DNA from: a virus
Virus genome (UHGV): UHGV-0272730
Reading direction: 5' to 3' (one strand)
DNA: 64,000 nt
Part shown: one piece after another, positions 60,394 through 62,918 of the stretch
How the letters are laid out: each line of letters begins with the position of its first letter
Numbering within the stretch: position 1 is the stretch's first letter
Notes under the pieces: model-generated
Seen by the model: the letters and a program-made list of their open reading frames with translations, nothing else
What the model was told of the DNA's origin: nothing
Databases searched by the model: none
Made by a program: the position numbers and the translations under genes

Positions 60394-60662
60394 TTCCTCG
60401 TTTTAAGAACTGCTAAGATTTCTTTAGAGTCTGGTAAGAACCATGTGTAGTGATTCTCTTTGATTTCTGGATGAGTGTCAACCTTTATTTTGCACTCTTT
60501 ACCAACATGCTTAAGCTGTGCTGTGATACCTTGCATAAAGATGTGACACATTACATTATCCATAATCGTAGGTAAGAAATCAATCCTCATGTAAGTATCT
60601 TTCGGTCTCGGTAGAAGTAAGTAACCTTCTGTGTAGAAAGTTTCATCATTACTTTGTGTCAT
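60390..60662 (-). CDS. hypothetical protein (90 aa)
   Basis: ORF in block. Confidence 0.45.
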   Translation of the reverse strand: MTQSNDETFYTEGYLLLPRPKDTYMRIDFLPTIMDNVMCHIFMQGITAQLKHVGKECKIKVDTHPEIKENHYTWFLPDSKEILAVLKTRK

Positions 60663-60928
60663 TACTGCTTATTCCCTAATAAAATCATATCAATAAGGTT
60701 ATTAGCTTTGATTGTGCACTGGTAAAATCCATCACGATAGAACTCAAGGGCTGCTGCCACATCACTACCAGTATTACCTTTGATAGTAAATCTTGAATCT
60801 TCTTGAGTGTACTTATCACCCTCACTTACTTGGGAGTTTTTGAATGTACTGTTCACTTTGTTCGTTGAACACCCTGACATAATTATCAGTAACACAAACA
60901 TTATAAAACTCTGGCTTAGTTTTTTCAT
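60662..60928 (-). CDS. lipoprotein (88 aa), o-spanin-like position
   Basis: Signal peptide with lipobox IMSGC; AAGAGGT 8 nt upstream; start lies inside the 3' end of the upstream TM-protein gene in another frame. Confidence 0.5.
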   Translation of the reverse strand: MKKLSQSFIMFVLLIIMSGCSTNKVNSTFKNSQVSEGDKYTQEDSRFTIKGNTGSDVAAALEFYRDGFYQCTIKANNLIDMILLGNKQ

Positions 60929-61169
60929 ACGTTAGTACCTCTTTTGTGTGCTTATTCTTAGCAAGCACATCTTTCAAATCATTTTTGTAATTAGTGCTCA
61001 GTGTAGCTAATCCTTCCTGATAAGCATCTTTAGCAACACTTATCAGCTTCTCATTATTTAGCTCAGTTTCAGCAACTTGGTAGTCTCTGTAAGAGTATCC
61101 TCCCCAGACACCTGCCCCAACTAAGAAAACAATTATGAAAGTAGCTTGACAGAACTCTTTAAATGTCAT
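60822..61169 (-). CDS. membrane-anchored protein (115 aa), i-spanin-like topology
   Basis: N-terminal TM helix ATFIIVFLVGAGVWGGY then soluble domain; AGGAGA 7 nt upstream. Confidence 0.45.
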   Translation of the reverse strand: MTFKEFCQATFIIVFLVGAGVWGGYSYRDYQVAETELNNEKLISVAKDAYQEGLATLSTNYKNDLKDVLAKNKHTKEVLTYEKTKPEFYNVCVTDNYVRVFNEQSEQYIQKLPSK

Positions 61170-61183
61170 TTAACAATCTCCTA

Positions 61184-61208
61184 AAATGAAAAAGGCTCCC
61201 GAAGGAGC
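61184..61208 (-). terminator. rho-independent terminator
   Basis: GGCTCC-TTCG-GGAGCC hairpin followed by UUUUUCAUUUU on the minus strand. Confidence 0.65.
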
Positions 61209-61221
61209 CTGTATCTTAACC

Positions 61222-61686
61222 TTAACCGAGGACTTTAGCAAGGATATTCGCAGCCATCGAAGAAGCTTTTGCAGCAGCAACTACGCCAGCTTTGACAGTG
61301 CTATCCTTAATAGCAGATACCGTTGCAGCATCAGTAAAGAGATAAGTGATTGTTTTGGAACCACTTGTAAAGGAAAGCATAAGGGTAGTTTCCAGATTGA
61401 AAGAGCGATACGGAGCACCTTCTTTAACGATACCTTCAGCACCTAACTCTGAAGCCTTACCCATATCATAGATAGTCATCAGGTTTTCTTTGTGTGCAGT
61501 CGTTGAACCAACACCTTTTACGTGCTTCTTAACGTTCAACAATGCACGATATTCACGAATGCTGCCATCAGCTTTTACATTAACAGCACGGAAAATTTTA
61601 CCTTCAAAGTTACCTTGAATCATTTTACGAACTACTTCAGATTTGTTTGCCGTATCGTCCAGTGCTACCGTAATGATATTGTTCAT
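61222..61686 (-). CDS. hypothetical protein (154 aa)
   Basis: ORF in block. Confidence 0.5.
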   Translation of the reverse strand: MNNIITVALDDTANKSEVVRKMIQGNFEGKIFRAVNVKADGSIREYRALLNVKKHVKGVGSTTAHKENLMTIYDMGKASELGAEGIVKEGAPYRSFNLETTLMLSFTSGSKTITYLFTDAATVSAIKDSTVKAGVVAAAKASSMAANILAKVLG

Positions 61687-61696
61687 AAGTTTTCTC

Positions 61697-62392
61697 TCAA
61701 TGTTTAACTAACATGGTTTTAATGTGTGGAAGGATTCTGTTCACCTTCTGCACATTCTTCTCTGTATCTTCTATAAAACATACTATATTAAAGTAAGGAA
61801 GAATGCAAGACTGAATCATCCTCACTTTCAAACTTTCTGCATTTATAGAGTTAGTTCCAAAACCACGCATAAAAAGCATGTAATCATGCTCTATGTAATG
61901 CCTTAAAAACATCTCAGTAGGGATTCTCTGAGATTCACCTCTAGCTGTCAAGAGTCCAATGGCAGCATGATTAGCAATTGCATCAATGATATTGAAAACA
62001 TACGTCGGCTTTGCACTTACAGAGTCAAGCAAATTAGTGTACTGTGAAAATGACCCATCAATCAATTCCGTTGAGTAATCTTCGTGATTAAAATTTGTAA
62101 GAACACCATCAATGTCTGCTAAGATAAGGTTACCTTTTTCTACAAGGTCTTTATTGACTATGACTAAGCTGTCACGCCTTACACCTACAGTTTGTCCAGT
62201 CTCTTTGTCCACAACGCTCACAATTGGTTCTGATGTGTGGAACTCTTCAAGTGAACATACAACTTCTCTTGCAGTATCTTCAAAATCCCTGCACTGTTCT
62301 GGAGTCCATACACAGGAATCAAGACCTAACTCATGAGGGTGCAAGTTGTAAGCATGGCACAGTACTTCATCAGACTTTCTTAATTTTTTCAT
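61697..62392 (-). CDS. HAD-superfamily phosphatase (possible deoxyribonucleotidase)
   Basis: Motif I LILADIDGVLTNF, motif II GLLTARG, C-terminal FIEDTEKN. Confidence 0.6.
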   Translation of the reverse strand: MKKLRKSDEVLCHAYNLHPHELGLDSCVWTPEQCRDFEDTAREVVCSLEEFHTSEPIVSVVDKETGQTVGVRRDSLVIVNKDLVEKGNLILADIDGVLTNFNHEDYSTELIDGSFSQYTNLLDSVSAKPTYVFNIIDAIANHAAIGLLTARGESQRIPTEMFLRHYIEHDYMLFMRGFGTNSINAESLKVRMIQSCILPYFNIVCFIEDTEKNVQKVNRILPHIKTMLVKH

Positions 62393-62918
62393 GGTTTACC
62401 TTAGAAATGTTTGTTGCAAATTCACATTGAGCGATAACTTTCATATTGTTATAGACATCTTGAGAGTATTTCTTAGCTTTAGGGATTCTATACGAATACC
62501 CAGCATTATATGATGCTAAAACTTTTTGTAAAGTCTTCTTTGACTTTGGGTGACCATGTACCTTCGTCCAAAACTCAAGCTCTTTATGTGTTTCTTTTGC
62601 GGCATAGTCAAAATCTTTTAAGAGTTTCTTTTTAGCAACATTAGGACTAATTTTGTTACGCTTTACAACAGTCTTCAAGTGATTCTGGAAGATACCATAG
62701 TCATGGGTCTTTTTATTTTCTACCTTCAGACCTAACTCTGACTCTTGTAAGGCTATAGCTGCTAGAGTGATACCCCAACCTTTACCCATGTTGTTCTCAC
62801 CATACTGGTAAGCTTTTAACATGTTTACTTTTTGGCTAATTGATAGCTCTGGGCAGTCAACTGCATAAGATAATTGTGCTGTAAACATTAAGCACAAACC
62901 TAGAATCAATTTCTTCAT
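62370..62918 (-). CDS. secreted lytic transglycosylase-like protein (SLT domain)
   Basis: Signal peptide MKKLILGLCLMFTAQLSYA; catalytic-region pattern AIALQESELG ... YGIFQ ... YNAGY. Confidence 0.6.
   Translation of the reverse strand: MKKLILGLCLMFTAQLSYAVDCPELSISQKVNMLKAYQYGENNMGKGWGITLAAIALQESELGLKVENKKTHDYGIFQNHLKTVVKRNKISPNVAKKKLLKDFDYAAKETHKELEFWTKVHGHPKSKKTLQKVLASYNAGYSYRIPKAKKYSQDVYNNMKVIAQCEFATNISKVNHEKIKKV

Follow-up and report, generated by a model that had tools for sequence, protein, structure and literature searches.

A predicted two-component spanin of the Felix O1 type, encoded by overlapping genes far from the lysozyme gene of a Felixounavirus genome

The spanins of phages Felix O1, T4 and lambda are the described systems closest to the gene pair analysed here. 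SpaninDB assigns the Felix O1 protein p014 to the overlapped i-spanins, the overlap being 107 nt long and the partner o-spanin 89 aa; its periplasmic domain is given from R28 onwards and no coiled coil is predicted for it (Kongari et al. 2018, supplement; PMC6139136). The lysis genes of Felix O1-like phages have been described as scattered (PMC4319497, PMC6486253). In T4, the two-component spanin PseT.3/PseT.2 was shown to be functional by complementation. It belongs to the 'separated' class, with a 4-nt junction between the genes, and consists of an i-spanin of about 115 aa without cysteine and a larger, non-proline-rich o-spanin with two cysteines. Its genes occupy an accessory or early part of the genome, at a great distance from those for lysozyme and holin and in the vicinity of a Pnkp-type phosphatase gene. 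In lambda, the type II inner-membrane protein Rz has two predicted coiled coils, and the gene of the outer-membrane lipoprotein Rz1 lies entirely within that of Rz, in a different frame. Mature Rz1 comprises 40 aa, is proline-rich and contains an essential penta-proline, and both genes are part of the lysis cassette.

The window, i.e. the whole stretch of 64,000 nt analysed from virus genome UHGV-0272730, was assigned by sequence comparison to Felixounavirus and was 99% identical to phage KhF3. Two overlapping genes on its minus strand (Table 1) encode, with a probability of roughly 0.9, a two-component spanin of the Felix O1 type. The preliminary description had noted the overlapping genes for a transmembrane protein and a lipoprotein, all features of which were found in the sequence, and had proposed an overlapped i-spanin/o-spanin layout. 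Homology and family membership, the targeting signals, a conserved gene architecture and the lysis-cassette context in relatives support this reading. The pair is already catalogued as the overlapped i-spanin/o-spanin of Felix O1, and the window represents another isolate of the genus. Its i-spanin differs from the SpaninDB sequence of p014 by two residues, and the pair occupies the same position downstream of rIIB. Both proteins share 95-100% identity with those of Felixounavirus records, and the pair is labelled i-/o-spanin in many GenBank entries, including those of phages Moogle, Mijalis, heid, Sf14 and phiSUSP1.

Table 1. Features of the spanin locus and of related genes in the window
Feature	Position	Strand	Remarks
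GH24 endolysin gene	44731..45195	+	Pfam PF00959, E 6.6e-41; phrog_7 endolysin, E 4e-58
o-spanin gene (predicted)	60662..60928	-	88-aa prolipoprotein, mature part 69 aa
Dual-coding overlap	60822..60928	-	107 nt; 3' end of i-spanin gene and 5' end of o-spanin gene in different frames
i-spanin gene (predicted)	60822..61169	-	115 aa; short cytoplasmic N-terminus, one TM helix, periplasmic domain
o-spanin Shine-Dalgarno	60938..60942	-	AGAGG, 9 nt before ATG, within i-spanin coding sequence
i-spanin Shine-Dalgarno	61178..61182	-	AGGAG, 8 nt before ATG
Intrinsic terminator	61193..61210	-	7-bp GC-rich stem and T run, between 154-aa gene and i-spanin gene
Conserved 154-aa protein gene	61222..61686	-	phrog_2267 (labelled unknown function); last gene before terminator
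HAD-type phosphatase gene	61697..62392	-	231 aa; related to 3'-phosphatase domain of T4 Pnkp
GH23/SLT-type enzyme gene (predicted)	62370..62918	-	182 aa; T4 Vs.1 homologue, neighbour of spanin genes

In the hydropathy profile of the putative i-spanin only one hydrophobic segment was present, covering approximately residues 9-25 (Kyte-Doolittle mean 2.0), as expected of a small protein that crosses the inner membrane once near its N-terminus and exposes its C-terminal domain to the periplasm. The protein matched phrog_1152 'Rz-like spanin' (E 8e-42), and Cys92, the single cysteine of its periplasmic domain, is part of the conserved motif KPEFYNVCVTDNYVRVFNE. In the PDB, no significant sequence match and no solved relative was obtained for it, and the NCBIfam search of both spanin proteins returned only sub-threshold noise. 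A lipobox scan of the putative o-spanin yielded the signal sequence MKKLSQSFIMFVLLIIMSG followed by C20-S21, with the lipobox IMSG in front of C20. Cysteine followed by serine is kept in all eight homologous pairs, none of which has an aspartate retention residue at +2; from the serine at this position, sorting to the outer membrane is expected. Cys71 of the o-spanin sits in the conserved motif LEFYRDGFYQCTIKANNLIDMI. PHROG searches assigned the protein to phrog_4180 (E 1e-49) and to phrog_456 'Rz-like spanin' (E 5e-4); the significant full-length matches to phrog_1152 and phrog_4180 place the pair in the Felix O1 spanin family.

Each gene is preceded by its own Shine-Dalgarno sequence, as had been stated. 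That of the i-spanin gene is also given for Felix O1 in SpaninDB, and a ribosome-binding site is annotated in Mijalis at the position equivalent to that of the o-spanin gene. The manually curated Mijalis record also uses the o-spanin start adopted here. Among public records the annotation of this start is inconsistent, which is of practical relevance: it is often called at a position that removes the signal peptide, and other records mislabel the two genes or leave one out.

The lysis genes of the window are dispersed, in line with the published trait of the group. The predicted muralytic partner of the spanins is the GH24 lysozyme, a soluble protein with the motif E15-x8-D24-x5-T30 and without a signal or SAR (signal-anchor-release) segment. 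Its gene is 15.5 kb away from the spanin pair, close to the earlier estimate of about 16 kb. Spanin genes are usually linked to holin or endolysin genes but need not be, as T4 also illustrates. While the pair in the window has no such linkage, two of its homologues do. The gene order in Proteus phage Isfahan is Phage_holin_8, a small transmembrane protein, a CHAP endolysin and the i-/o-spanin; in Yersinia phage P778 an orthologue of the GH24 lysozyme (57% identity to that of the window) is encoded directly upstream of the spanin pair. As judged from gene order, these two arrangements tie the pair to lysis. The P778 'endolysin' had also been considered as a counterpart of the 154-aa protein of the window; it did not match that protein and is orthologous to the GH24 lysozyme. 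A hydropathy scan of the window, together with PHROG and tblastn searches of ORFs 35762-36319 and 48038-48571, revealed no convincing holin. ORF 35762-36319 carries a holin label in one record and was rejected; the protein is also present in RB16/RB43/KP15-type T4-like phages, which presumably carry their own t holin.

Upstream of the spanin genes, three genes of a T4-like accessory region are found. The preliminary description had assigned the first of them to a transglycosylase of the SLT type with a signal peptide. This was corroborated by GH23 residues, a predicted fold and a typical N-terminal signal sequence, MKKLILGLCLMFTAQLSYA followed by VD. As in family-1 lytic transglycosylases, the protein contains the motifs E59-S60, G75-x-F-Q78 and S136-Y-N-A-G140; among 14 homologues E59, Q78, Y137, N138 and G140 were invariant, and S60 and G75 nearly so. 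The match to Pfam SLT (PF01464) remained below the gathering score (19.0 bits versus a cutoff of 21.3, E 1e-3), and precomputed PF01464 hits are present in the more distant homologues P0015, P0016 and P0018-P0020. No significant sequence match was obtained in the PDB, and NCBIfam yielded only sub-threshold noise. In Foldseek searches of the PDB with the AlphaFold2 model (mean pLDDT 85.1), g-type lysozymes and the lytic transglycosylases Cj0843, MltE, MltF and MltD were the top matches, with TM-scores of 0.35-0.53 (best about 0.5), probabilities of up to 1.0 and a best E-value of 3.5e-3. The model thus points to a goose-type lysozyme/SLT fold. The protein is 31% identical to T4 Vs.1 (E 3e-16). 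Both comprise about 181-182 aa, possess an N-terminal signal sequence and share three motifs of family-1 lytic transglycosylases (GH23), namely ES, GxFQ and SYNxG, whereas their genomic neighbours differ, being regB and vs in T4 and rIIB and the HAD phosphatase here. The ORF list gave rIIB a length of 271 aa; a truncation or frameshift was rejected, as the translation shows that the gene runs off the end of the window and that the short length is an artefact of the list.

The HAD gene shares 23 nt with the SLT gene. Its product matched phrog_3970, phrog_415, phrog_505 and phrog_4889, aligning with the phosphatase part of polynucleotide kinase profiles. HAD motif I, D93-I-D95-G-V, aligned with D165-V-D167-G-T of T4 Pnkp, and E208-D209 (motif IV) with D277-D278 of T4 Pnkp (PseT). 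On reading the 231-aa sequence for a kinase P-loop GxxxxGK[ST], no GK[ST] was found; residues 1-85 had no match in PHROG, Pfam or the T4 Pnkp alignment, and NCBIfam gave sub-threshold noise only. Since the protein lacks a kinase domain, the label HAD phosphatase chosen in the preliminary description is more accurate than the public annotation 'polynucleotide kinase', a practical point for annotation. The 154-aa protein had no match in Pfam or NCBIfam.

The preliminary description had presented the spanin genes as clustered with those for the transglycosylase and the HAD phosphatase. If the cluster were functional, it could be a single lysis module with two muralytic enzymes, in which a GH23 enzyme, exported by Sec, would thin the wall without a holin and cooperate with the spanins. 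The catalytic-type motifs, the signal sequence and the GH23-like predicted fold of the SLT protein agree with such a function, a lysis role was proposed for T4 vs.1 in 2006 from its SLT match, and SLT and 'polynucleotide kinase' genes also precede the spanin pair in Mijalis and a Hafnia phage. We nevertheless consider this module unlikely. The SLT, HAD and 154-aa genes form a separate unit, closed ahead of the spanin genes by the intrinsic terminator, which has an annotated counterpart in both AYO145A and Mijalis. Since only 23 nt separate the terminator from the ATG of the i-spanin gene, an interval in which no promoter-like site was found, the spanin mRNA probably arises by read-through. The adjacency is not general either: in T4 a distance of about 73 kb lies between vs.1 (at 61.7 kb) and the spanin genes (at 135 kb), the Vs.1-type family occurs in 2128 phage records, mostly of T4-like phages, and the spanin genes of P778 and Isfahan adjoin a classical endolysin gene and not an SLT gene. 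T4 e (lysozyme) mutants fail to lyse despite an intact vs.1; an enzyme of the Vs.1 type therefore does not suffice as endolysin. To our knowledge, no role in lysis has been assigned to HAD polynucleotide-phosphatase-like enzymes.

Another suggestion had been a module that is targeted to the periplasm and serves to exclude superinfecting phages or to remodel the cell envelope. The pair, alone or with the SLT enzyme, would then act like T5 Llp, the phage Cor lipoproteins or T4 Imm/Sp and not as a lysis device. Phage lipoproteins are known exclusion factors, the pair lies among early-type accessory genes next to rIIA/rIIB and far from the lysozyme gene, and the best PHROG family of the o-spanin is labelled 'unknown function'. 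Nothing found in our analysis favours this function, and it is very improbable in view of the overlapped homologues that reside within holin-endolysin-spanin cassettes or directly after an orthologous lysozyme gene. In T4, too, the proven spanin genes belong to an early region and are distant from e and t. Moreover, an N-terminally anchored protein and an outer-membrane lipoprotein with co-conserved C-terminal cysteine motifs represent the defining design of spanins (PMC6139136).

The spanin reading is further supported by the conservation of the overlap itself. The o-spanin gene begins, in a different frame, within the i-spanin gene and continues past its end, the arrangement that defines the overlapped class (Summer et al. 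2007; Kongari et al. 2018). Homologous overlapped pairs were identified in a Mooglevirus, in Hafnia, Erwinia and Yersinia myophages, in a Gordonclarkvirinae podophage, in Proteus phage Isfahan and in a Flyfo podovirus. In these seven distant phages the overlap was not lost; its length ranges from 107 to 143 nt, and both ORFs and the lipobox are kept down to a protein identity of about 25-30%. The C-terminal cysteine motifs of both proteins are conserved across the eight pairs, with one predicted periplasmic cysteine in each protein; at least one periplasmic cysteine is present in 507 of 528 two-component spanin systems. Between the window and Mijalis, nucleotide divergence amounted to 9.3% in the overlap versus 23.7% and 27.5% in the single-coding flanks, i.e. 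it was 2.5-3 times lower in the overlap. These patterns indicate that the overlapped arrangement is more than chance. Although short out-of-frame ORFs are frequent in AT-rich phage DNA and several GenBank records omit the 88-aa ORF or call a start without signal peptide, there is next to no probability that this ORF arose by chance and that only the 115-aa protein is made, given its own Shine-Dalgarno sequence, its complete lipoprotein signal, its extension of 160 nt past the overlap, the lipobox cysteine and C-terminal motif retained in the seven further phages, and the reduced divergence of the overlap.

In comparison with the described systems, the pair resembles T4 PseT.3/PseT.2 in being two-component, in the size of the i-spanin, in its non-proline-rich o-spanin and in its location in an accessory region, remote from the lysozyme gene and near a Pnkp-type phosphatase gene. 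It differs from the T4 pair in its overlap and in the one periplasmic cysteine per protein. Sequence similarity to the T4 proteins was not detectable by BLASTP (i-spanins, E 18; o-spanins, signal peptide only, E 0.04). T4 spanin function was shown by complementation, whereas the Felix O1-type pair is known here from sequence; in the literature searched, no complementation or localisation results were found for its family. With lambda Rz/Rz1 the pair shares the combination of a type II inner-membrane protein with an outer-membrane lipoprotein from another frame of the same DNA, as well as cysteines available for intermolecular disulfides. By architecture and composition it falls outside the Rz/Rz1 family of embedded genes with a proline-rich o-spanin: its genes overlap only partly and lie outside a lysis cassette, the mature o-spanin is longer and contains no proline at all, and the Felix O1 i-spanin lacks the predicted coiled coils of Rz. 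That the lipoprotein is not proline-rich had been recorded correctly beforehand; it does not speak against a spanin, given that a proline-rich region is also absent from the o-spanins of the T4 family (PMC6139136).

By analogy with the lambda and T4 paradigms, the N-terminal helix of the 115-aa protein would hold it in the inner membrane, while the periplasm would receive its domain of about 88 aa, which is mostly helical. The 88-aa product would acquire its lipid at Cys20, reach the outer membrane by virtue of its serine at +2 and be bound to the i-spanin via the conserved C-terminal segments, each of which contains one conserved cysteine, probably for intermolecular disulfides. The resulting complexes would span the periplasm and be held caged by the peptidoglycan mesh until a holin releases the GH24 lysozyme and the wall is degraded. 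Once freed, they would fuse or disrupt the outer membrane as the last step of lysis.

The discovery value of the locus is small, as the pair is a catalogued Felix O1 spanin and the scattering of lysis genes a published trait of the group. Felix O1-like phages find use in biocontrol and phage therapy, and for this group the missing holin and the conserved, secreted Vs.1-type transglycosylase pose real if modest questions. An o-spanin without proline and an i-spanin without a predicted coiled coil imply that the fusion machinery of the Felix O1 type may differ in detail from lambda Rz/Rz1. It is distinctly improbable that the Vs.1-like enzyme takes part in lysis or lysis control independently of a holin, for example by local thinning or remodelling of the wall that aids proline-free and apparently coiled-coil-free spanins. 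If it did, Felix O1-type spanins would fuse membranes in a manner that differs in detail from that of Rz/Rz1.

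Two overlapping genes encode a 115-aa i-spanin candidate and an 88-aa lipoprotein, the o-spanin candidate, and all elements of the preliminary description of this pair were found in the sequence. The 115-aa product has a single N-terminal hydrophobic helix (residues ~9-25), and its gene carries the Shine-Dalgarno sequence AGGAG 8 nt upstream of the start. The 88-aa product carries at its N-terminus the lipoprotein signal MKKLSQSFIMFVLLIIMSG|CS, whose Ser at position +2 makes sorting to the outer membrane the expected outcome. The first 107 nt of its gene lie within the 3' end of the i-spanin gene in another frame, and it has its own Shine-Dalgarno sequence (AGAGG) 9 nt upstream. 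As described before, the lipoprotein is not proline-rich: its mature 69 aa include no proline and one further Cys (position 71), and the periplasmic domain of its partner holds one Cys (position 92). The i-spanin matched phrog_1152, 'Rz-like spanin' (E 8e-42); the lipoprotein matched phrog_4180 (unlabelled, 1e-49) and phrog_456, 'Rz-like spanin' (5e-4). Together with the conserved architecture and the lysis context in relatives, these matches support the spanin reading.

The pair is already known, being catalogued in SpaninDB and widely annotated, with i-spanin and o-spanin labels on the two genes in many GenBank records. The overlapped spanins of Kongari et al. (2018) include those of Felix01, FO1a and UAB_phi87, and KBNP1711 and Moogle also appear in the supplement (PMC6139136). 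For Felix O1 p014 the supplement gives an AGGAG site, coordinates 5330-5678 and 5571-5841, a 107-nt overlap and an o-spanin of 89 aa, compared with 88 aa here (PMC6139136); p014 differs from our i-spanin in 2 residues and has the same AGGAG site and overlap. Public annotation of the pair is inconsistent between records. The o-spanin is called from M17 in heid (locus L001, 3263-3481), with loss of the signal peptide, and as a 65-aa 'hypothetical protein' in AYO145A (L002, 3257-3454). Both genes carry the o-spanin label in the Hafnia phage (L007, 2468-2984), the P778 record (L009, 2486-2993) has no i-spanin CDS, and in Isfahan (L004, 3001-3240) the overlapped o-spanin ORF is unannotated. GU169904 'Staphylococcus phage SA1' (database matches H24, H86 and H179) and MG065664 'Campylobacter phage A132' (match H175) contain genes 93-100% identical to those of this Felix O1-like phage and are probably mixed or mislabelled records.

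The 2.7-kb region of the finding shares 99% identity with Enterobacteria phage KhF3 and 95-97% with many Felixounavirus genomes (subfamily Ounavirinae, Felix O1-like myophages), and all its genes lie on the minus strand. The 154-aa protein is conserved, with an Ala-rich C-terminal tail, and had no match in Pfam or NCBIfam; a strong intrinsic terminator directly follows its gene. No promoter-like site was found in the 23 nt between this terminator and the i-spanin ATG, which makes read-through from upstream the probable source of the spanin mRNA.

Coordinates of the genes and terminators discussed; the first eight rows follow the order of transcription
Feature	Coordinates	Strand	Remark
rIIB		-	extends past the window end; not truncated
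Intrinsic terminator	63005-62982	-	between rIIB and SLT-type gene
SLT-type gene	62370-62918	-	Vs.1-like
HAD gene	61697-62392	-	Pnkp-like phosphatase
154-aa gene	61222-61686	-	phrog_2267
Intrinsic terminator	61210-61193	-	between 154-aa gene and spanin pair
i-spanin gene	60822-61169	-	115 aa
o-spanin gene	60662-60928	-	88 aa; last in the series
Macro-domain gene	58866-59645	-	Tk.4-like
Ig-repeat (Hoc-like) + GH24 block	43847-45195	+	
GH24 lysozyme gene	44731-45195	+	
185-aa membrane protein gene	35762-36319	-	phrog_2143
177-aa membrane protein gene	48038-48571	+	phrog_4343
85-aa lipoprotein gene	3289-3546	+	phrog_902

The SLT-type protein scored slightly below the Pfam SLT cutoff. Its similarity to T4 Vs.1 (locus L011, 2727-3272; 31% identity, E 3e-16) identifies the two as homologues, and a resemblance of Vs.1 to SLT was noted as early as 2006 (PMC1524935). 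Members of the Vs.1 family were found in 2128 phage records, most of them T4-like, and the catalytic-type motifs and signal sequence are conserved. Alignment to 13 homologues showed E59, Q78, Y137, N138 and G140 to be invariant and S60 and G75 nearly so; these residues make up the ES, GxxQ and YNxG motifs known from family-1 lytic transglycosylases. Nearly all aligned members have an N-terminal hydrophobic signal, and a Cys pair conserved among the closer homologues (C22 and C165) would suit a periplasmic location. The AlphaFold2 model (mean pLDDT 85.1) has a predicted fold resembling goose-type lysozymes and the lytic transglycosylases Cj0843, MltE, MltF and MltD. A lysis system with two muralytic enzymes is conceivable but unlikely. 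Against it stands the behaviour of T4, in which mutation of the lysozyme gene e prevents lysis even though vs.1 is still functional in sequence.

The HAD protein aligns to the phosphatase half of T4 Pnkp, with PHROG matches as well, D93-x-D95 corresponding to D165-x-D167 and E208-D209 to D277-D278. Residues 1-85 had no match and a kinase P-loop is absent, so the label 'polynucleotide kinase' given to the gene in relatives overstates a protein predicted to carry a HAD 3'-phosphatase-like domain only. The Macro-domain protein, which has an extra C-terminal region of ~100 aa, is similar in its Macro part to T4 Tk.4 (33% identity, E 9e-23). With rIIA/rIIB and the genes for the Vs.1-like protein, the Pnkp-like phosphatase and the Tk.4-like Macro protein, the region amounts to a T4-like accessory gene set, whose T4 counterparts are dispersed (vs.1 at 62 kb; pseT.3/pseT.2/pseT at 134-136 kb). 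For the clustering of the spanin pair with the SLT and HAD genes, to which the preliminary description had given weight, no functional tie was found apart from adjacency, and a terminator lies between the units.

Homologous overlapped pairs were found in seven further phages: Citrobacter phage Mijalis (Mooglevirus), Hafnia phage SarahDanielle, Erwinia phage M7 (Kolesnikvirus), Yersinia phage P778, podophage KBNP1711 (Gordonclarkvirinae), Proteus phage Isfahan (Gorganvirus) and a Flyfo podovirus. The Isfahan pair ends a canonical lysis cassette, in the order Phage_holin_8 protein, 86-aa membrane protein, CHAP endolysin, i-spanin and overlapped o-spanin. The gene immediately before the P778 pair encodes the orthologue of our GH24 lysozyme (57% identity, E 1e-63). 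Gene context in these two relatives ties the family to lysis. The alternative proposed initially, a module for superinfection exclusion or envelope remodelling, lacks support, since lysis cassettes of other phages contain the same pair. The window encodes another predicted lipoprotein (85 aa, signal end VIFLSG|C), for which an exclusion or receptor-blocking role is possible.

A lack of overlap in relatives had been named as evidence against the spanin reading; instead, in all seven further pairs a lipobox ORF comes after the gene for an N-terminally anchored protein and overlaps it by 107-143 nt. Protein identity among the pairs is as low as ~25-35%, and two C-terminal motifs are still kept, (K/E)P(V/E)(F/Y)xNxC(V/A/I)(T/S)(D/E)xY(V/R)xxFN in the i-spanin and (L/M)(E/D)(F/Y/W)(Y/W)(R/Q)xx(F/Y)xxC(A/T)xxxNGL(I/V)(D/E) in the o-spanin, each with one conserved Cys. 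Relative to Mijalis, the overlap diverges by 9.3% at the nucleotide level and the two single-coding flanks by 23.7% and 27.5%, as dual coding constraint predicts. The overlap is more than chance. That the lipoprotein ORF arose by chance is excluded by its conservation.

The spanin assignment is based on targeting signals, architecture, family membership, conservation and the lysis context in relatives; the mechanism is extrapolated from the lambda and T4 paradigms. The inner membrane would anchor the i-spanin, and the outer membrane its lipidated partner, the o-spanin. The two would bind via their conserved C-terminal segments, and intermolecular disulfides would probably form at Cys92 and Cys71. 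The peptidoglycan mesh would retain the complexes until the holin-released GH24 lysozyme clears it, whereupon the freed complexes would bring about fusion or rupture of the outer membrane.

The Meda announcement describes scattered lysis genes and no identified holin (PMC6486253). The conserved 185-aa membrane protein (one N-terminal transmembrane helix) is called 'holin' in one GenBank record, yet RB16/RB43/KP15-type T4-like phages have it too; the 177-aa membrane protein, likewise conserved, has two C-terminal transmembrane helices. The lysozyme (PF00959, E 6.6e-41) has no signal or SAR (signal-anchor-release) segment, and its distance from the spanin genes, first put at about 16 kb, is 15.5 kb. 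In both P778 and our phage, the gene before the lysozyme encodes an Ig-repeat protein, and the two proteins are homologous (P778 segment, L009 1188-2993). Lysozyme and spanins are thus contiguous in P778 and far apart in Felixounavirus, where a rearrangement therefore separates the endolysin from the spanins.
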